Made by a program: the position numbers and the translations under genes. From assembly GCA_002722315.1 (NCBI GenBank), contig PBLG01000002.1, positions 89,949 through 153,948 on the forward strand: 64,000 nucleotides of DNA. The letters run 5' to 3'. Shown in pieces: positions 4,411 through 37,199 of this stretch (its first letter is position 1; every line of letters starts with the position of its first letter). Under the pieces are notes generated by a model, which worked only from the letters and a program-made list of their open reading frames with translations, was not told the DNA's origin and ran no database searches. The DNA comes from Lysobacterales bacterium. Its GTDB lineage: Bacteria; Pseudomonadota; Gammaproteobacteria; Xanthomonadales; Wenzhouxiangellaceae.

Positions 4411-5571
4411 TTACGAGGAGGCGCCTACGCGCCAGGCCGAAAGCTTGCCGTCCACATCCAGCACAAACAGAACATTGCCGACAACCAGCGGCGCGCCGGC
4501 CGGTGCATCCTTGGACGCTCGCTCGCGCGCGACGAATTCGCCGGTATCGGCGTCCAGCCAGTGCACGTAGCCCTCCTTGTCGGCCACGGCAACGAATCCG
4601 CCCTGAAGCACGGGACGACTCAAGCCGCGACGAAGAAGCTGCTCGTTGCTCCACCCGGTTGAACCGCTGCGCCGGTCGAGCATCCAGATCCTGTCCTCGG
4701 AATCGGCCAATACCATCTGCGTTCGGGCGACGGTCAGCCCGGAATTCGATCCGACTTCCTTGACCCAGAGCAGGCGCCCGGAGTCAAGCGCGACGGACGC
4801 CATGCGATCGTGCTCGCTGATGGCGTAGATGTCCAGGCCGACGATCTCCATGTGGCCGTCGATGTCGGCCAGTCGATCGAGCTGGGTCCGCCCTTCCGGG
4901 GTGCCCACGCGCTGCTCCCACAACAGCTGGCCGTCGGCAAGACTGAGCGCCGTCAGGGCACCGTCGTCATGGCCTACGAAGACCTGGCCGCCGCGAATCA
5001 CGGGGGCCGAGTTGCCTCGCAGCGTCAACAGCGGCACGCTGCGGTCGTAGACCCATTCCCGGAGACCGGTATCCGCATTCAAGCCAAAGACCCGGCCGTC
5101 GATGCAGCGAACGACGATCACGCCGTCGCGCTGCAGGGGTGGGGCAAGAATCTCGGAGGAAAGCTGCGCCCGCCAGTCGATCGCTCCGGTATTACGGTCG
5201 AGCACAAGGATCTGTCCGTTCATGGTGCCCAGCAGCACGCGCTGGCCGACCACTGTGGGACCGGCAGACAGGTCCATTTCGAGATCGAATCGACGCAGGC
5301 GGTCGCCCGATGCGGCGTCGATGACCGTCAAGCGCCCCTTGTGGTCGGCGGTCCAGATCTCCCCATCGATGTGAAAGGGCATCAGACCCGGAGCACTCTT
5401 GCCCAGGCCGCTTCCGGTCGAGGTGCTCCAAAGCTTGCTTACCTTCAGCCGCTCGTCGATATCGGTCAATTCCATCGGATCCCGTTCGGGATCCTTCTTG
5501 CCGAACATGCCGCAACCGCCCAGCACGACCGCCAGCGCGACCAGCAGGACGTTACGGTACACGGCTATCAT
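4411..5571 (-). CDS. bamB: Outer membrane protein assembly factor BamB
   Basis: Lipobox LGGC, PQQ-like beta-propeller repeats, LTLRGNSAP; lies between yfgM and der; start at MIAVYR overlaps the yfgM stop. Confidence 0.95.
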   Translation of the reverse strand: MIAVYRNVLLVALAVVLGGCGMFGKKDPERDPMELTDIDERLKVSKLWSTSTGSGLGKSAPGLMPFHIDGEIWTADHKGRLTVIDAASGDRLRRFDLEMDLSAGPTVVGQRVLLGTMNGQILVLDRNTGAIDWRAQLSSEILAPPLQRDGVIVVRCIDGRVFGLNADTGLREWVYDRSVPLLTLRGNSAPVIRGGQVFVGHDDGALTALSLADGQLLWEQRVGTPEGRTQLDRLADIDGHMEIVGLDIYAISEHDRMASVALDSGRLLWVKEVGSNSGLTVARTQMVLADSEDRIWMLDRRSGSTGWSNEQLLRRGLSRPVLQGGFVAVADKEGYVHWLDADTGEFVARERASKDAPAGAPLVVGNVLFVLDVDGKLSAWRVGASS

Positions 5572-6239
5572 GAATTCTCCGGGCCGTCGATCGCGGCACG
5601 TCCGATCGCCGACTGAACCGCATCCAGCTTGGTCTCGGCCTGCCGAAAATCCCGACCCTCGCCACGCAGCTGGGTCACCGCAGCGGCGTAGGCGTCCGCG
5701 GCCTCGTCGAACCGCGCCATGTCGAAAAGGATGTCGCCGCGGGTTTCCAGCCACAGGCCCTGGTACCCGGCCGGCACCTCGCCCTGCAGCAACGCAAGCG
5801 CCGCGTCGCCGCGGTCCCGGGCGATTTCGATCAGCGCCAGCCTGAGCCGGATCAGCGGCTTCAGCGATGCCCACTTGCCGGAATCGAGCAGCGAAGAATA
5901 AATCTCGCCGGCCTTATCGACTTCGCCCTCGTCGGTCAACGCGGATGCGACCAGCATGCCCGAAAGCGCGACGTAGGCATGCTCGCCCACGCCCTCGCGC
6001 ATTGCAGCGAACTGCTCGGCCGCGGCCTGCGTGCTGCCGGCATCCAGTTCCTGCTGGATCGCGGCGTAATACTCGTTGGCCAGCATGGCCTGGCCGGACT
6101 GGTAGTCCTGCCACTGCCGCCAGCCGAAAATGCCGGCCAGCGCCAGGGCCACGCCCATGAGTATGGAAACACCGTTTTCGCGCAGCCAGTTGCGTACGCG
6201 TTCGCTTTGTTCGTGTTCGTCGTAGAGCTCTACGGCCAT
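5568..6239 (-). CDS. yfgM: YfgM ancillary SecYEG translocon subunit (TPR)
   Basis: DEHEQSERVRNWLRENG, one TM helix, RLRLA, ETRGDIL; conserved synteny. Confidence 0.93.
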   Translation of the reverse strand: MAVELYDEHEQSERVRNWLRENGVSILMGVALALAGIFGWRQWQDYQSGQAMLANEYYAAIQQELDAGSTQAAAEQFAAMREGVGEHAYVALSGMLVASALTDEGEVDKAGEIYSSLLDSGKWASLKPLIRLRLALIEIARDRGDAALALLQGEVPAGYQGLWLETRGDILFDMARFDEAADAYAAAVTQLRGEGRDFRQAETKLDAVQSAIGRAAIDGPENS

Positions 6240-16441: not shown

Positions 16442-17576
16442 GAATTACCGCGAAACGTTTCCCGTCATCGATCGTCACACCTGGTTGAACCACGCCGCGA
16501 TTTCGCCCTGGCCGGCCGCAGTCGGCGCCGCGATGCGGGGATTCGTGGAACAGAATGTCGCGCATGGCCCGCTGGGCTATCCAAAGTGGCTGGACACGGA
16601 ACAGCGCCTCCGAAAGCGCGGGGCCGATCTTCTCGGCGCCGCCGAAGATGATCTTGCGCTGGTCAAGAATACATCAGAGGGCCTGAGCCTGATCGCCGCC
16701 GGACTGGACTGGCAACCCGGTGATGCGCTGGTCTGCTGTTCCGGCGATTTCCCCAGCAACCTGATGCCGTGGCACCAGCTGGTCCCGGATTTCGTCGATG
16801 TCCGCGAAGTCCCGTTCGACGATCGGGATCCCGAGACCGGCCTGATCGACTCGTTGAGCGACGACGTCCGGTTGCTCGCCGTAAGCTCGGTGCGCTACGA
16901 CTCCGGTGTGCGACTGGATCTGGACCGGCTTGGCCGGGCCGCGCACGAGATCGGCGCGCTGGTGGTGGTGGACGCGATTCAGCACCTCGGCGCATTGCCG
17001 CTGGACGTCGCCACCGCGCCGGTGGATTTCGTGGTCGGCGGCAGTCACAAGTGGCTGCTGGCCCCGGAGGGCCTCGCGCTGTTCTGGTCCCGGCCCTCGG
17101 CGCGAAACCGGTTGCGCACCATGCAGACCGGCTGGCGGATGTGGCCGGACATGTTCAATTTCGAGCGGTCCGACTGGACGCGGCCCGAAAGCGCTCGTCG
17201 TTTCGAGCCCGGCACACTCAACATGGCCGGCATTCACGGACTTGAAGCCTCGCTCGAGCTTCTGCAGGGAATCGATCCGGAGACGCGAGCCGGACAGTTG
17301 CTCGATCGCACGGGGTGGCTTATCGACGGCCTCGAGCGAATGCCTGGCGTTGACATCGTCACGCCCGTCGAACGCGGCCGGCGGGCGGGCATCGTCTGCT
17401 TCGTTCCTGCCGGCCTGGATCCCGACGCGGTGCTGAAACAACTGGCGTCGCGCTCGATCTTCGCCGCCCGGCGGGGGCGGTCGGTACGGCTGTCGCCCAA
17501 CTTCTACACACCCGAGGATCAGATCGCACGGGCGCTGGAAGTGATCGGGGGCATCATCGCGCATGGCGCGACCTGA
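16440..17576 (+). CDS. Aminotransferase class V (cysteine desulfurase/selenocysteine lyase-like) PLP enzyme
   Basis: WLNHAAISP, NTSEGL, VDAIQHLG, SHKWLLAPEG, RFEPGT, VRLSPNFY. Confidence 0.88.
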   Translation: MNYRETFPVIDRHTWLNHAAISPWPAAVGAAMRGFVEQNVAHGPLGYPKWLDTEQRLRKRGADLLGAAEDDLALVKNTSEGLSLIAAGLDWQPGDALVCCSGDFPSNLMPWHQLVPDFVDVREVPFDDRDPETGLIDSLSDDVRLLAVSSVRYDSGVRLDLDRLGRAAHEIGALVVVDAIQHLGALPLDVATAPVDFVVGGSHKWLLAPEGLALFWSRPSARNRLRTMQTGWRMWPDMFNFERSDWTRPESARRFEPGTLNMAGIHGLEASLELLQGIDPETRAGQLLDRTGWLIDGLERMPGVDIVTPVERGRRAGIVCFVPAGLDPDAVLKQLASRSIFAARRGRSVRLSPNFYTPEDQIARALEVIGGIIAHGAT

Positions 17577-30438: not shown

Positions 30439-33400
30439 CTACCCGGTCGCGCTCATGAGCTGGCCCAGCCCGTGAATCGCGACCTGCATGGTGGCGAAAT
30501 CCACCGTGGACGTCGCGCGCATCTCCTCGAGCATCGCCCGGGTGCGGGAAACCGCACCGGCGTGCTTGTCGAACCAGGCCTCAACGGGGTCCTCGCGGTC
30601 CCGGTGCTCGGTAAGAATCCGGCGCACCAGTATCCGGTGATGACTGAACAGCTCATCGCGAAGGTTGCCCCTGGCGTGCGCGTGCCATTGCTTTTCGACA
30701 GACAGGCTTTCGACGGTCTCGCGCAGCCAGCGAAGGCAGAGGCGATCCAGGAGTCCGAAATACACGCGGCCGACTTCGACCACTTCCAGGTCCAGCCCGC
30801 GCGCCTCGTCCACGATGTCCAGTGCCGAATACATCCAGCCGAGCGCCGCAAGGCGCCTGGCAAAATCCGAATCGAATCCGGCCTCTTCGAGTTCGCGGCG
30901 TCGTTCCTGAAGCGCCTCGCGCTCGACATCGGTAAGAATATTCGGCAAGGCCTCGCGAAAATCCTTCATGCCCGGCCCGAACCGGTTGACCTTGCTGGAA
31001 ATATCGATGGAGAAACCACCCGGAAGCGTGATCAGGCGCCGGGTACTCTGGCGCATCAGGTTCCAGATTTCCAGGTACATACGGTTCTGCAGGTCGGCCG
31101 GAACGGTGGCGTCGTAACGCTCCAGTTCATGCCAGTAGCAGCGCGCCTCGAAGATCTCCCTGGCCACCGTGTAGGCCTTGGCCACGGTGGCCGAGCTGGC
31201 GCCGGTGTCTTCCTTGATGCGCATGGCGAAGTACGCGCCCATGCGATTGACCAGGTTGTTGGTCACCCGGGTCGCGATGATCTCGCGCTTGAGCTTGTGC
31301 TCCGGCATCAGGTCGGCGAACTCTTCGCGCAGCGGCTTGGGGAAATAGTCCTCCAGCTCGCGCGACAGGTAGGGATCCTCGGGCACTTCGGAGGCCACCA
31401 GGTCCTGGTATAGCGTGATCTTGCTGAACGAGAACAGCACGGCGAGCTCCGGCCGCATGAGCCCGAGCCCGCGCGCCACCCGATCCCGCAGTTGTTCTTC
31501 GTCCGGCAGATCCTCTAGGTCGCGGTCGATGAGACCCTGGTGCTCGAGCATGGTAATGAAATGCGCCTCGGCCCCCAGCCGGGTGGAAGTGAGCGATTCC
31601 ATCATGCTCAGCGCCTGGGTCTGAAGGTAGTTGCTGCGCAGCACGAGGTGCTCGACCTCGTCGCTCATTTCGCCGAGCAGCCGGTTGCGGTGGGCCCGGT
31701 CTATACGCCCGGAATCCACGGCCTGGTCCAGCAGGATCTTGATGTTGACCTCATGGTCGGAGCAGTCGACCCCGGCCGAGTTGTCGATGAAATCGGTGTT
31801 GATCCGGCCGCCGTTCATCGCATACTCGATCCTGCCCTTCTGGGTCAGACCGAGGTTGCCGCCCTCGCCCACGACGCGACACTGCAATTCGCGCCCGTCG
31901 ACCCTGACCGGGTTGTTGGCCAGGTCGCCGACGTCGGAATGGGTCTCGCCGGAGGCCTTGACGTAAGTGCCGATACCGCCGTTCCAGAGCAGATCGTACT
32001 CGGCCCGGAGAATGGCCCTGATCAGCGCCTGCGGCGAAAGCTCATCTTCTTCCGTCCCCAGCCATTCGCGTACATTCGGCTGGATCTTGATCGACTTGGA
32101 TTGGCGCGAGAATACGCCGCCACCTTCTGAAATGAGGCTCTGATCGTAATCCGACCAGCTTGATCGACCGAGCCCGAACAAGCGCTGGCGCTCGGCAAAG
32201 CCGGCCTCCGGATCCGGCTCCGGGTCGATGAAGATGTGCATGTGGTTGAACGCGGCCTTCAGGCGAATATGGCGCGACAGAAGCATGCCGTTGCCGAACA
32301 CGTCCCCGGACATGTCGCCTATGCCGACGACGTCGAAAGTCTCGCTCTGGGTATCCAGCCCCAGTTCGCGGAAGTGACGCTTGACCGATTCCCAGGCGCC
32401 CTTGGCGGTAATGCCCATCTTTTTGTGGTCATAGCCGTTGGACCCGCCGGAAGCGAAAGCGTCGCCGAGCCAGAAACCGTGCTCTACCGAGATCGCGTTG
32501 GCGATATCGGAGAACGTTGCCGTCCCCTTGTCCGCCGCGACCACGAGGTAGGGATCGTCGTCGTCGTGCCGGACGACGTCCTTCGGGACTCGAATCGAGT
32601 CGCCGTCGAGGTTGTCGGTGATGTCGAGAAGCCCGTTGATGAACGAGCGATAGCAGTAGACCACCTCCGCCATGATCTCGTCGCGGTCTTCGGTTTCGGG
32701 CAGGTTCTTGACGAAGAACCCGCCCTTGGCGCCGACCGGCACGATCATGGTGTTCTTGACGGTCTGGGCTTTCATCAGCCCGAGCACCTCGGTGCGGAAA
32801 TCCTCCCGACGATCCGACCAGCGAAGACCGCCGCGGGCGACTTTGCCGCCCCTGAGATGGACGCCCTCGACCCGCGGCGAATAGACCCAGACCTCGCGGA
32901 AAGGCCGAGGCTTGGGCAGATCCGGCAGAGCCCTTGAATCGAATTTGAAGCTCATGTACTCGTGATGCTGGCCGCGCGCATCACGCTGGAAGAAACTGGT
33001 TCTCAGCATCGCCCGGATCGTGTCGCTGAAGGCCCTGAGAATCCGGTCCTGGTCGGCGCTGGCCACCGAGTCGAGAATGCGCAACAAGGCCTTGCGCACC
33101 GCAGTCGCGTCGTCGTCCCGGCCCTCGGTCTCGCGCGCGAGGTAGACGTCCTCGAGAAACTCGTGCAGCACGGCATCGTTGATGCCCTCGGCAAGCTCAA
33201 CGCACTGGTGGCGCAGGTGCTTGCGCGCCGCGACGCGTCGGGCGCGCTTTTCTTCGCTTCGCTCGGGATCGAAACGCGCTTCGAAATACTCGACCAGCAG
33301 GCGCGCCGCCAGCGGCCAGGCCGCCAGGGTCTGCTCCATGTAATTCTGCGAGAAAGGCGACCCGGTCTGCTGCAGGAACTTGGCACAGGCGCGCAACATG

Positions 33401-35367
33401 CATGCCTGGCGCCAATCCAGCCGGGCCAGGAGTATCAATCGATTGAAACCGTCGTTTTCGTTGTGGCCGCGCCAGGTCTGCTCGAAGGCTTCCTGGAAAT
33501 GGCTGCGAATGAGGTCCAGGTCGAGCCCGTCGGAGACCGGCGGCTGCATGTCGAAATCCTGGATCCAGATGCAGTTGCCGTCGGAAAGCTTCAACTCGTA
33601 GGGACGCTCGGAAACGATCCGCATGCCGAGGTTTTCGAGCATGGGGAGCACGTCGGAAAGCGGAATCGGCTCGTTGTACTTGAACAGCTTGAAGCGGAGA
33701 ATGCCCTGTACCCGGCGCTTGGGCTTGTAGAGGCTCATCTGCAGGTCTTCGACGTTGCGAAGGCTTGCCGCGGTCAATACGTCGAAGCTGGCCACGTGCG
33801 GCGCCACGTCGCCCTGGTAGCTCAGGGGGAAGGCATTGCCAAAACGCCTGAGCAGTTCCAGCCCCTTTTCTTCCCCGCACTTGCGAATCAGGATCTCGCC
33901 GAGTTCATCATCCCAGCTCCGGATCGCTTCCTTGATGCGCGACTCGATGTCGGAGACGTTGAAATCGATCTCTCGATCGGCCCGCGGACGAATGATGAGA
34001 TGCATGCGGGCCAGTTTGGACTCGCCGACCTGAACCGAAAAATCGAGCCTTTCACCCTTGAGCGCCCGCTTGAGTATCGCCTGAACCTTCTGCCGGTTCT
34101 CGGTGTTGAAGCGGTCCCTGGGAATGAACACCATGCACGAGTAGAACCGGCCGAAGCGCTCGCGGCGAATGAACAGGCGGGTCTGGGCGCGCTCCTGCAG
34201 GTCGAGAATGCCGACGCTGAGTTCCAGCAGGTCGTCTATGCCGGCCTGGAAGAGTTCGTCGCGCGGCAGCGTCTCGAGTCTGTGCATCAGCGCCTTGCCG
34301 GCGTGCGATCCAGGTCGCAGGCCGGATTGCGCGAGCACCCGGTCGACCTTGATTCTCACAAGCGGGGTGTCGTGGCAACGGCGGATATAGGCCCCGGAGG
34401 TGAACAGGCCGATGATGCGCTTCTCCCCGCTCACCCGTCCGGAATCGTCGAACCGGAGGACCGAGATGTAATCCATGTAGCCGTCGCGGTGAACGGTGGC
34501 CCGACCATTCGTCTTGGTGATGATGATGGGATGGATTTCGCCGCTGATGCCGCGCGAGTCACCCGAAAGATCGCTTATGAGGCGCGACGGCGACTTGCGG
34601 TGGCTGTCGCGCATCAGGCCCAGACCGCTCTCGTCGACGGGCTCCAGCACGCGTCCCTCGCCGCTCTCCGAGATCAGGTATTCGCGGTAGCCCAGAAAGG
34701 TGAAATGGTCATCGGCCAGCCACTTGAAGAACTCACGCGCTTCGGCCAGTTCATCGGCATCCAGTCCCGACTTGCTCTCGGCGAGTTCGTCGGCGATTTC
34801 CAGCGCCTTGCGGGTCATTTTCTGCCAGTCGCGGACGGCAACGCGCACGTCGGCCAGCGCCGAGCGGATGCGGCGCTCGATTCGCGCCAGCGCATCCGGC
34901 GACGTCTGGCGATCGATGCGAATATGGATCAACGACTCTGCGGCTGCCTGTTCGGCCTCGTCGTCTCCCGCCATTGCGAGGAAATGCCCGCCCTGGTCGC
35001 GCTTCAGCCGAACCACGGGGTGGATGATCAGGTGTACGCCGATGTCGAGACGGGACAACGCGAGAACGACCGAATCGACCAGGAACGGCATATCGTCGTT
35101 GACCATCTCGACGACGGTGTGGCTCGACGACCAGCCGTTGGCTTGCGCGGTCGGGTTGTAAACCCTGATCAGCAGCTCACCGGGGCGACGCTGTCGAAGG
35201 AAATCGAAAAACCCGGAAATCATGCGTGCCTGCTGCACCGCCGAATCCTCGTCTTCCTCGATCGCCGGATAATGGCGCAGGAACTGGCGTGCAAATGCCT
35301 TTTCCGGTTCGGGCGTCTGGGGCCCGAATCCTTCGAGCACTTCGTCGATCTTCTTCTTGTTGTTCAT
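30439..35367 (-). CDS. gdhB: Large NAD-specific glutamate dehydrogenase
   Basis: 1642 aa; DDMPFLVDS, GVHLRGGKVARGGLRWSDR, VVAADKGTATFSD, GYDHK, GIGDMSGDVFGNGM, DNSAGVDCSDHEVNIKI. Confidence 0.97.
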   Translation of the reverse strand: MNNKKKIDEVLEGFGPQTPEPEKAFARQFLRHYPAIEEDEDSAVQQARMISGFFDFLRQRRPGELLIRVYNPTAQANGWSSSHTVVEMVNDDMPFLVDSVVLALSRLDIGVHLIIHPVVRLKRDQGGHFLAMAGDDEAEQAAAESLIHIRIDRQTSPDALARIERRIRSALADVRVAVRDWQKMTRKALEIADELAESKSGLDADELAEAREFFKWLADDHFTFLGYREYLISESGEGRVLEPVDESGLGLMRDSHRKSPSRLISDLSGDSRGISGEIHPIIITKTNGRATVHRDGYMDYISVLRFDDSGRVSGEKRIIGLFTSGAYIRRCHDTPLVRIKVDRVLAQSGLRPGSHAGKALMHRLETLPRDELFQAGIDDLLELSVGILDLQERAQTRLFIRRERFGRFYSCMVFIPRDRFNTENRQKVQAILKRALKGERLDFSVQVGESKLARMHLIIRPRADREIDFNVSDIESRIKEAIRSWDDELGEILIRKCGEEKGLELLRRFGNAFPLSYQGDVAPHVASFDVLTAASLRNVEDLQMSLYKPKRRVQGILRFKLFKYNEPIPLSDVLPMLENLGMRIVSERPYELKLSDGNCIWIQDFDMQPPVSDGLDLDLIRSHFQEAFEQTWRGHNENDGFNRLILLARLDWRQACMLRACAKFLQQTGSPFSQNYMEQTLAAWPLAARLLVEYFEARFDPERSEEKRARRVAARKHLRHQCVELAEGINDAVLHEFLEDVYLARETEGRDDDATAVRKALLRILDSVASADQDRILRAFSDTIRAMLRTSFFQRDARGQHHEYMSFKFDSRALPDLPKPRPFREVWVYSPRVEGVHLRGGKVARGGLRWSDRREDFRTEVLGLMKAQTVKNTMIVPVGAKGGFFVKNLPETEDRDEIMAEVVYCYRSFINGLLDITDNLDGDSIRVPKDVVRHDDDDPYLVVAADKGTATFSDIANAISVEHGFWLGDAFASGGSNGYDHKKMGITAKGAWESVKRHFRELGLDTQSETFDVVGIGDMSGDVFGNGMLLSRHIRLKAAFNHMHIFIDPEPDPEAGFAERQRLFGLGRSSWSDYDQSLISEGGGVFSRQSKSIKIQPNVREWLGTEEDELSPQALIRAILRAEYDLLWNGGIGTYVKASGETHSDVGDLANNPVRVDGRELQCRVVGEGGNLGLTQKGRIEYAMNGGRINTDFIDNSAGVDCSDHEVNIKILLDQAVDSGRIDRAHRNRLLGEMSDEVEHLVLRSNYLQTQALSMMESLTSTRLGAEAHFITMLEHQGLIDRDLEDLPDEEQLRDRVARGLGLMRPELAVLFSFSKITLYQDLVASEVPEDPYLSRELEDYFPKPLREEFADLMPEHKLKREIIATRVTNNLVNRMGAYFAMRIKEDTGASSATVAKAYTVAREIFEARCYWHELERYDATVPADLQNRMYLEIWNLMRQSTRRLITLPGGFSIDISSKVNRFGPGMKDFREALPNILTDVEREALQERRRELEEAGFDSDFARRLAALGWMYSALDIVDEARGLDLEVVEVGRVYFGLLDRLCLRWLRETVESLSVEKQWHAHARGNLRDELFSHHRILVRRILTEHRDREDPVEAWFDKHAGAVSRTRAMLEEMRATSTVDFATMQVAIHGLGQLMSATG

Positions 35368-35442: not shown

Positions 35443-36606
35443 TCAGCGCAGTCCCGTTTCCAGCCGGCCAATCACCATCCGCTGAATTTCGCTGGTGCCT
35501 TCGTAGATTTCGGTGATCTTGGCGTCGCGAAAATACCGTTCCACCGGCAATTCCTTGCTGTAGCCCATGCCGCCGTGAATCTGGACGGCCTGGTGTGTGA
35601 TCCACATTGCCGACTCGGAAGCCACCAGCTTGGCCATGGAGCCGTCGACGGTGAAGCGCGCCCCGCTGGCCTGGGACTGTTGCTTGACCCAGGCCGCTCG
35701 CAGCGTGAGCAGTCGGGCGGCCTCGAGACGCGACTTCATGTCGGCGATCTTGGCCTGGATCATCTGGAAGCTTCCGATCTCCCGACCGAATGCCTTGCGC
35801 TCGCGCGCGTAGGCGACGCTGGCCTCGTAGGCCGCCTGGGCGATGCCCACGGCCTGCGCGGCGATGCCGATGCGTCCCGCGTCGAGCACACCCATCGCGA
35901 TCTTGAAGCCCTCGCCTTCGGCACCGAGCAGGCAGTCCGCGGGGCACTTGTAGTCGTCGAGTTCGATCTCGCAGGTGGCCGAGGCGCGGATGCCGAGCTT
36001 GGGCTCGGTCTTGCCGCGGCTGAAGCCTTCGACTTCGGTATCGATGATGAAGGCCGATACGCCCTTCGCGCCGGCATCCGGATCGGTCATCGCGAACAAC
36101 ACGATATAGCGCGCGTAAGGCCCGGAAGTGATCCAGGACTTGCGGGCGTTGATGACGTAGTGACTCCCGTCGTCGGACTTCACGGCACGCGACTTCATGT
36201 TGGAAGCATCTGACCCGGACTGTGGTTCGGTCAGCGCGTAGGCGCCGATTTCGGCCCCCGTGGCGATGGCACGGACGTACTTTTCCTTCTGTGCTTCCGT
36301 ACCGTGCTTGAGGATGCCGTTGCAGAACAGCGAATTATTGACACTCATGATGGTGCCGTGGGCGGCATCCGCGGCGCAAATCTCGATCATCGCCAGCACG
36401 TAGCCGATGGTGTCCAGGCCGGCGCCGCCATAGGCTTCGGGCACCTCGATGCCCATCAGGCCCAGTTCGCCCATGGCCCGAATATTCTCGAGCGGAAACT
36501 CACCGGACTGGTCGAAATCCGCCGCTACCGGCGCGATCCGCTCCCGGGCGAAATCGCGGGCGGCTGCCTGGATCATCTGCTGCTCTTCGGTCAAATTGAA
36601 ATTCAT
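35443..36606 (-). CDS. Acyl-CoA dehydrogenase (short/branched-chain type)
   Basis: YALTEPQSGSD, KSWIT, KLGIRAS, QIHGGMGY, IYEGTSEIQR. Confidence 0.93.
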   Translation of the reverse strand: MNFNLTEEQQMIQAAARDFARERIAPVAADFDQSGEFPLENIRAMGELGLMGIEVPEAYGGAGLDTIGYVLAMIEICAADAAHGTIMSVNNSLFCNGILKHGTEAQKEKYVRAIATGAEIGAYALTEPQSGSDASNMKSRAVKSDDGSHYVINARKSWITSGPYARYIVLFAMTDPDAGAKGVSAFIIDTEVEGFSRGKTEPKLGIRASATCEIELDDYKCPADCLLGAEGEGFKIAMGVLDAGRIGIAAQAVGIAQAAYEASVAYARERKAFGREIGSFQMIQAKIADMKSRLEAARLLTLRAAWVKQQSQASGARFTVDGSMAKLVASESAMWITHQAVQIHGGMGYSKELPVERYFRDAKITEIYEGTSEIQRMVIGRLETGLR

Positions 36607-36785
36607 GAAGAAACGTTTCCTCAAAAAAAGGTTTGAAAAACGGCCACGACGGCCGGGCCGAAGTGAGTCCCGGCAGTGACGAAAGCGCAAGAATCAATGA
36701 ACGGCGAGTATATCACCCGGGCGCGAATTTTCATTTGGCCGGCGCTGGAAGAACAGCCATTTCAGCAGTTTGTGAACCGGTTCTC

Positions 36786-36813
36786 TTGACACGGGCCCAC
36801 AGTACGCTAAACT
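36786..36813 (+). promoter_or_regulatory. Sigma70 promoter upstream of tRNA-Leu
   Basis: TTGACA (36786-36791), 16-bp spacer, TAAACT (36808-36813). Confidence 0.7.
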
Positions 36814-36818
36814 TGCAT

Positions 36819-36893
36819 TTCCGGTCTGGGGTTCCCCCCTTCCCCGTTCCGGATTGTGGCCGAGGTTCCCCCCTTGCCTCGGCCACTTCTTTT
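36819..36893 (+). ncRNA. Candidate small RNA or structured leader with two C-rich stem-loops
   Basis: Two hairpins each carry GGTTCCCCCCTT; the second has a perfect 10-bp stem followed by TTCTTTT; directly downstream of the promoter. Confidence 0.5.
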
Positions 36894-36895
36894 AT

Positions 36896-36982
<87 letters not shown>

Positions 36983-37114
36983 TCTTAAAGTTCGATCAGG
37001 CAACCTGGCCGAAACCACCGGAATAGCTGAATCGTTCCGGGCCAAGTACTGCAAGAAACCGCAAGAACATCAAAACCTGCGCGAACAGGCGCGCAGGTTA
37101 GAATGTGAACGCAT

Positions 37115-37199
37115 GCCGAGGTGGCGGAACTGGTAGACGCGCCAGGTTTAGGTCCTGGTGGGAATTCCCGTGGAGGTTCGAGTCCTCTCCTCGGCACCA
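37115..37199 (+). tRNA. tRNA-Leu (anticodon TAG)
   Basis: Same acceptor stem, anticodon arm CCAGG-TTTAGGT-CCTGG, long variable arm, T-loop, encoded CCA. Confidence 0.97.

Follow-up and report, generated by a model that had tools for sequence, protein, structure and literature searches.

The sRNA sX13 (RF02232) of the Xanthomonadaceae carries three hairpins with C-rich loops, is encoded after polA and represses mRNAs containing GGGG motifs without Hfq (PMC3771888). In that report, about 5% of Xanthomonas genes carry GGGG at the Shine-Dalgarno (SD) position, neither the position nor the flanks of the motifs are conserved among the regulated genes, and pairing of the loops with G-rich sites was shown; compensatory mutants failed, and an unknown factor was posited. 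The 6C RNA (B11; RF01066) of Actinobacteria binds G-rich 5′ UTRs without a chaperone (PMC6486639). The cuckoo RNAs (RSs0680, CcsR) of Alphaproteobacteria consist of two to four adjacent hairpins that present one repeated anti-SD-like loop on variable stems, and one cuckoo neighbourhood adjoins a leucine tRNA gene (PMC4615179). RNase P makes the 5′ ends of tRNAs, and the 3′ external spacer of E. coli leuZ (3′ETS-leuZ) acts together with Hfq as a sponge for the sRNAs RyhB and RybB (PMC8166272). The element described here lies directly before tRNA-Leu(CAG) in the window, by which we mean the whole 64,000-nt stretch of Lysobacterales DNA that was analysed, and represents a conserved, uncatalogued family of RNAs with C-rich loops that has no Rfam match.

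A two-hairpin RNA between a promoter and tRNA-Leu(CAG)

The locus begins with a sigma-70-type promoter on the + strand (36786–36813), in which TTGACA (36786–36791) and TAAACT (36808–36813) are separated by a 16-nt spacer. This promoter matched 10 of 12 consensus positions in a promoter scan, which called two promoter-like sites in 1.6 kb compared to 0.4 ± 0.6 in shuffled sequences. About 7 nt after the −10 box the hairpins start, and transcription probably begins at ~36819–36820. Hairpin 1 (36820–36853, +) has the loop UUCCCCCCUU at 36832–36841, and hairpin 2 (36856–36886, +) has the loop UCCCCCCUU at 36867–36875, closed by a U-G pair. A U-rich linker of 9 nt, TTCTTTTAT (36887–36895, +), ends in a predicted RNase P site and is directly followed by tRNA-Leu(CAG) (36896–36982, +). 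The neighbouring tRNA-Leu(TAG) (37115–37199, +) has its own TAGAAT box upstream and lies outside the two-hairpin RNA. Directly before this TAGAAT box, in the interval that separates the tRNA genes, an inverted repeat (37074–37099) is terminator-like on the − strand and lies 3′ of a convergent acyl-CoA dehydrogenase gene; genes of this type flank the locus in the window. Further upstream, a 1642-aa open reading frame (30439–35367, −) had no NCBIfam match at E ≤ 0.001; we take its motifs to resemble those of a large NAD-dependent glutamate dehydrogenase.

The region 36810–36900 folded at −40.2 kcal/mol (z = −5.46), and none of 200 shuffled sequences was equally stable. For the precursor of leader plus tRNA, one dominant fold was predicted that contained both hairpins and the cloverleaf, with no competing structure and with the C-loop bases ~0.9 unpaired. 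Only two exact copies of the 12-mer GGTTCCCCCCTT exist in the 3.5-Mb assembly, and both lie at this locus (36830 and 36864). An earlier note made from the sequence had placed the promoter, the two C6-loop hairpins and the tRNA at 36896 and had reported the exact repeat of the 12-mer, all of which proved correct. It had also called the RNA unannotated, and an Rfam scan of the element indeed returned no family at its gathering score, the best being SorY at 19.9 bits (cut-off 111) and sX13 at 16.1 bits (cut-off 50); only tRNA exceeded a cut-off in scans of the window region and 14 homologous loci. The U-rich stretch that the note had seen after hairpin 2 is present, but it is at most a weak terminator, since no terminator was called from hairpin 2 and TTCTTTTAT in a scan of the window region, and a U-tract is absent from most copies in a second family of the order (see below). 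The leader contains no ATG before 36894 and thus no leader peptide start. No description of a two-hairpin RNA linked to tRNA-Leu was found in the literature searched, for which supplements and most subscription papers were outside the scope, and a listing in a motif-discovery supplement is possible.

Conservation and covariation

Across 17 genomes of the same genus, the two-hairpin RNA was 96.0% identical and the tRNA 95.7%, compared to 58.9% for upstream DNA, 57.4% for the promoter spacer and 56.0% for downstream DNA. A collection of 72 distinct homologues was used to compare genera, and 70 of these had TTGAC within 80 nt upstream. CCCC was present in loop 1 of 72/72 and in loop 2 of 71/72 copies, counts that are partly given by construction because the copies were chosen by matching a C-rich pattern and by filtering on their fold. 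The loops read CCCC(C)UU across copies, while loop length (~4–13 nt in predicted folds), C-run length and stem geometry differ among genera.

In a plain MAFFT alignment of 33 copies, hairpin 2 showed compensatory changes at 6 of 11 pairs, and only its outermost pair was ever broken. RNAalifold did not recover hairpin 1 from the same alignment because its register shifts between genera; each copy folded singly forms both hairpins. A model-fitted alignment of 51 sequences showed two-sided changes at 10/10 pairs of hairpin 1 (81% paired) and 8/11 pairs of hairpin 2 (98% paired), and these 18 of 21 pairs varying on both sides exceeded all 500 shuffles and slid controls, although such an alignment leans towards structure, its members are kin rather than independent, and one paralogue is included. 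G-U and U-G pairs are tolerated when the RNA is read from the + strand, which favours this strand, and indels of one and two bases occur among the homologues. The earlier note had suggested aligning relatives for loop conservation with stem covariation, and this is the pattern obtained: the CCCC loops are kept and the stems covary.

Distribution in two families of one order

When 60 relatives were searched at the DNA level, the matches extended across the hairpins within the genus and the family. Two covariance models, R1 and R2, were then built in the analysis. In the following, f1 is the family of the window (Wenzhouxiangellaceae-type), f7 the second family of the same order, and g1–g7 are genera. 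R2 matched 19/19 f1 and 18/20 f7 genomes, and R1 matched 18/18 and 14/18, respectively. Inspection of the 18 f7 matches identified 15 as the tRNA-linked two-hairpin RNA and three as a three-hairpin relative only, which places the tRNA-linked form in 19/19 f1 and 15/20 f7 genomes. None of the other families sampled from the order yielded the two-hairpin RNA (0 of 7, 19, 2, 19, 16 and 18 genomes). Single matches in f2, f5 and f8 were rejected upon inspection; at the level of the order, the matches beyond f1 and f7 comprised three-hairpin sX13-like RNAs in f8, a long palindrome of no relation in G058 and a lone C-loop hairpin in G051. In the wider class, R2 matched one of 150 other genomes, with a three-hairpin RNA lacking a tRNA, in a search that scored 31 candidates per genome and can miss weak homologues.

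A GTDB pattern scan returned at least 119 loci, and the first 80 were scored with R2: 40 reached 36–92 bits, and for the other 40, mostly alphaproteobacterial promoters with chance C-runs, nothing exceeded 13 bits. Among the matches listed, the best R2 copies came from entries titled Wenzhouxiangella, Wenzhouxiangellaceae and Lysobacterales; other listed copies came from entries titled uncultured Gammaproteobacteria or Pseudomonadota, one Chromatiales and one Oceanospirillales, with titles unchecked. Overall, among the families searched, the RNA was recovered from two, both belonging to the same order.

Comparison with sX13 and other C-loop RNAs

Similar to sX13, the RNA belongs to the same order and forms a stable chain of hairpins with C-rich (4C/5C) apical loops, and its two hairpins align weakly with sX13 hairpins 2–3 (16.1 bits against a gathering cut-off of 50). 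However, sX13 has three stem-loops behind an unstructured 5′ region (~115 nt) and lies downstream of polA, whereas the element has two hairpins without an unstructured 5′ part and precedes tRNA-Leu(CAG), with polA on another contig. Its loops read CCCC(C)UU and it is mostly made as a tRNA leader, unlike sX13. A genome search with RF02232 gave no match at the tRNA-Leu locus; across the order it returned weaker three-hairpin RNAs, many of them located right after polA, and in f2 true sX13. Four f1 genomes (G022, G086, G095 and G126) carry a polA-linked three-hairpin RNA and, separately, the tRNA-linked RNA. All 16 sX13 or sX13-like loci scored with R2 reached 16–39 bits, but R2 scores on three-hairpin paralogues are inflated because R2, like alignment A2, includes the three-hairpin paralogue L119 and a few 3′ tRNA bases. 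Orthology with sX13 was rejected, given the co-occurrence of a separate sX13-like RNA in the same genomes; distant paralogy or convergence is possible.

The genome of the window itself contains a three-hairpin sX13-like RNA (L077; G000:C50, ~5555–5680, +), which is located ~1 kb from zapE and not after polA. Its loops contain CUCCC, UCCCC and CCUCCC, it ends in a U-tract, and it is unannotated and below the Rfam cut-off. A GAACTT-N16-GTC box precedes 12 of 23 three-hairpin sX13-like loci (L058–L061, L066, L077, L117, L121 and L482–L485) and was absent before three true Xanthomonadaceae sX13 loci; we presume that it resembles the sigma-E promoter consensus. Family f7 carries another conserved RNA with three or more hairpins and CCCCUU loops, mostly beside zapE (L111, L112, L118, L119, L474, L476, L478–L481 and L486–L491), which is possibly a further undescribed sibling. 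The third loop of the sX13-like RNAs of f8 (L117, L120 and L121) is close to the loop of the tRNA-linked RNA, and two of these three are followed by an extra terminator hairpin, as in g7. In another order of the class, L156 (G221:C25, ~17200–17320, −) is a three-hairpin C-loop RNA with a U-tract and a GAACTT-type box, which suggests that sX13-like RNAs extend beyond the order.

As in 6C, the element has two stem-loops, each of which presents about six C. 6C is found in high-GC Gram-positives, whereas the named carriers here are Gammaproteobacteria and the RNA is tRNA-linked. The 6C model (cut-off 47 bits) gave no match at E ≤ 10 at the locus in 5/5 genomes, a test of low sensitivity, as the Corynebacterium control also stayed under the cut-off; the resemblance is most likely convergent. 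As in the cuckoo/CcsR RNAs, adjacent hairpins carry the same loop on variable stems, but the cuckoo motif is CCUCCUCCC rather than CCCC(C)UU and belongs to a different bacterial class, and the cuckoo family was absent among the Rfam matches of the window region and 14 homologous loci. The element resembles 3′ETS-leuZ, as that RNA is described in PMC8166272, in its origin from a leucine tRNA precursor, and differs from it in being a strongly structured 5′ leader with gene-like conservation that can be its own transcription unit.

tRNA leader in most genomes, separate gene in others

The distance from the RNA end to the tRNA was ≤6 nt in 42 of the 72 distinct copies, 7–25 nt in 22 and >100 nt in eight, placing the RNA within 25 nt of the tRNA in 64/72. 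In 38/72 copies the linker was ≤6 nt with fewer than four T, i.e. without a U-tract; f7 linkers measured 3–6 nt and were mostly U-poor. A different arrangement was seen at 10 loci of g2 and g7, where both C-loops are retained and the RNA is followed by a third, 11–13-bp hairpin without a C-loop and a U-rich tail, and then by a new TATAAT box before the tRNA. One g6 genome has an insert of 201 nt and the g3 genome one of ~950 nt. Genome G161 carries a second copy (L471) with a promoter and a U-tract but no tRNA within the 3-kb locus. The terminator and tRNA promoter of g2 and g7 and the tRNA-free copy of G161 indicate that the RNA acts in its own right. Its neighbours vary as well: rnr lies 3′ of the tRNA in f7, g3, g4, g5 and g6 loci and not in g1, g2 and g7, where acyl-CoA dehydrogenase genes flank the locus, and purA lies upstream in two f7 loci. 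This exchange of rnr and acyl-CoA dehydrogenase genes suggests that the RNA is independent of the genes downstream.

In the assembly of the window (85% complete), tRNA-Leu(CAG) is the sole CAG tRNA and CUG accounts for 62% of the leucine codons (home-made gene calls), and read-through into the tRNA would therefore have to be substantial. Among RNA libraries, the element was covered by contigs of a single study, and two of these bridge the junction between RNA and tRNA, matching 36828–36955 (with four other letters) and 36835–37063 (with none); they carry no information on ends, strand or free RNA and imply neither a single transcript nor cleavage. The two runs concerned, X1 and X2, covered the element and left 36593–36809 without cover. 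Runs X3 and X4 of the same study had no listed piece over the element and X5 and X6 left it uncovered, gaps that prove nothing. The bridging contigs and the upstream gap fit transcription from the promoter.

Candidate targets

The 16S rRNA end, CCTCCTTT in 5/5 genomes, is the standard CCUCCUU, which excludes an altered anti-SD sequence. A loop reading CCCCCUU is thus one base off the anti-SD and would prefer AAGGGG over AAGGAG. GGGG was found in the SD window of 164 of 2744 predicted genes (home-made gene calls), compared to 66, 83 and 35 in control windows, a share similar to that given for sX13 in Xanthomonas. GGAG was far more enriched at this position (689 vs 83), and the enrichment of GGGG is explained by G-U wobble with the 16S rRNA; substrates for the loops therefore exist, which does not imply targets.

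Conservation of individual sites was low. AAGGGG stood at the start of pilU in two of 11 full-length f1 orthologues (one truncated locus was left out) and in 2/29 parsed f7 loci of the PilT/PilU type, and GGGG near the start of hfq, an sX13 target, in 0/30. A partial cross-genome screen found no shared orthologue among the first 30 of 46–96 AAGGGG-N-ATG sites per genome in six genomes (180 of 412 AAGGGG sites, 99 ORFs). Partners ranked by prediction in the genome of the window include galU-like and pilU-like genes, which are unvalidated and carry no evidential weight. Since the motifs of the genes regulated by sX13 are also described as unconserved in position or flanks (PMC3771888), these negative results weaken the pairing model without refuting it. 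A further point against the model is that the stems are as near-invariant as the loops within the genus, beyond what mRNA pairing needs.

Discussion

We consider it reasonably probable that the element is a trans-acting sRNA of ~70–76 nt; its loops are predicted to repress translation by pairing with G-rich ribosome-binding sites. Transcription would begin near 36820 and, here and in most relatives, continue into the tRNA; a cut by RNase P at 36896 would then free an RNA with a stable 3′ hairpin, and in g2 and g7 a separate terminator would take the place of this release. By analogy with sX13 and 6C, each CCCC(C)UU loop, a look-alike of the anti-SD (16S end CCUCCUU), would bind (A)AGGGG-type sites, and many mRNAs would be bound rather than one conserved target. 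The earlier note had left open whether the RNA is a trans-acting sRNA, freed by RNase P or termination, or an attenuator of tRNA-Leu. As far as the comparison reaches, its sRNA branch is supported by loop conservation with stem covariation, by independence from the tRNA in two genera and one duplicate, and by an f7 leader that lacks a terminator, while its attenuator branch is not.

An attenuator, adjusting the expression of tRNA-Leu(CAG) (and of rnr) by conditional termination at hairpin 2, would make sense of an RNA placed between the sole promoter and the tRNA and followed here by TTCTTTTAT, but it is improbable for several reasons: the U-tract is missing from the short, T-poor linkers of 38/72 copies, the real terminator at the 10 uncoupled loci is a third hairpin after which the tRNA has its own promoter and before which both C-loops are kept, the predicted fold of the precursor in the window shows no competing structure, its leader has no ATG before 36894, and at seven loci of other families a TTGACA promoter is followed immediately by tRNA-Leu(CAG), with no such hairpins between them. 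The uncoupling in g2, g7 and G161 likewise makes an attenuator unlikely. It also bears on a cis element for tRNA maturation or stability, whose leader would be degraded after RNase P cleavage, to which we give an equally small chance. The RNA is nearly always beside the tRNA, and the 7-bp core of hairpin 2 (GCCGAGG/CCTCGGC, from 36859–36865) has the same sequence as the acceptor stem of the tRNA-Leu beside it (36896–36902), the 5′ arm of the hairpin holding the first seven bases of the tRNA in 18 of 89 tabulated copies. However, the element is retained unchanged where it is uncoupled, relatives make the tRNA without it, and general acceptor-stem mimicry was rejected, as the match, seen in g1, g2 and part of g7 (both GCCCAGG there), fails in other genera and in f7. 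That the element is a chance or coding artefact, e.g. of the mechanically called 94-codon TTG frame (36633–36917) that overlaps it, is refuted by conservation and covariation: the fold has z = −5.46, homologues differ by indels and compensatory stem changes, and the frame runs into the tRNA.

Rsm/Csr RNAs titrate CsrA through repeated GGA loops, and two identical pyrimidine-rich loops at fixed spacing could likewise bind a dimeric or multi-domain RNA-binding protein. Such a protein decoy is rather unlikely, yet the strongest of the rivals: it would account for the identical loops, for conservation of the whole molecule at the level of the tRNA and for target tests that found no conserved mRNA, and the failure of the compensatory sX13 mutants, with the unknown factor posited in PMC3771888, points the same way. 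Against it, loop length, C-run length and stem geometry vary across genera, the loops lack GGA, no candidate protein gene is constant beside the RNA, and the structural analogues tested in PMC6486639 act on RNA. A sponge derived from the tRNA spacer, capturing another non-coding RNA whose seed is G-rich in the manner of the leuZ spacer, is only slightly more credible than the attenuator. Origin from a leucine tRNA precursor in most genomes, with the precedent in PMC8166272, and the presence of hfq in 31/31 family genomes searched agree with this explanation; however, the other conserved small RNAs seen there also have C-rich loops and could not pair, and the best loop complements outside the locus are scattered in the genome.

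Returning to the trans-acting sRNA, a more specific and tentative version, which we regard as possible but doubtful, would make it a growth-tied regulator. As part of the 5′ leader of the most used leucine tRNA, the RNA would be transcribed from a stable-RNA promoter in equal numbers with the tRNA; RNase P would release it, and the level of the RNA would track growth rate; beside it, a separately controlled sX13-like sibling (often with a sigma-E-like box, and with other loops) would provide a stress channel next to the growth channel for mRNAs with G-rich ribosome-binding sites, and related genera would show the steps from leader to gene.

The finding adds an uncatalogued, strongly conserved RNA family from environmental bacteria. 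Its notable feature is the tRNA-leader arrangement, as the loop chemistry has several known precedents, which limits the surprise. The family offers a natural series: some genera keep the RNA as a leader of the tRNA, others encode it as a gene with its own terminator, and one genome has a free duplicate. It also provides a minimal two-loop system for the question raised by sX13, whether C-loops pair directly with G-rich ribosome-binding sites or require another factor. Should RNase P indeed free the leader, and should the freed RNA regulate mRNAs, then tRNA 5′ leaders would give rise to trans-acting regulators whose production is coupled to tRNA synthesis.
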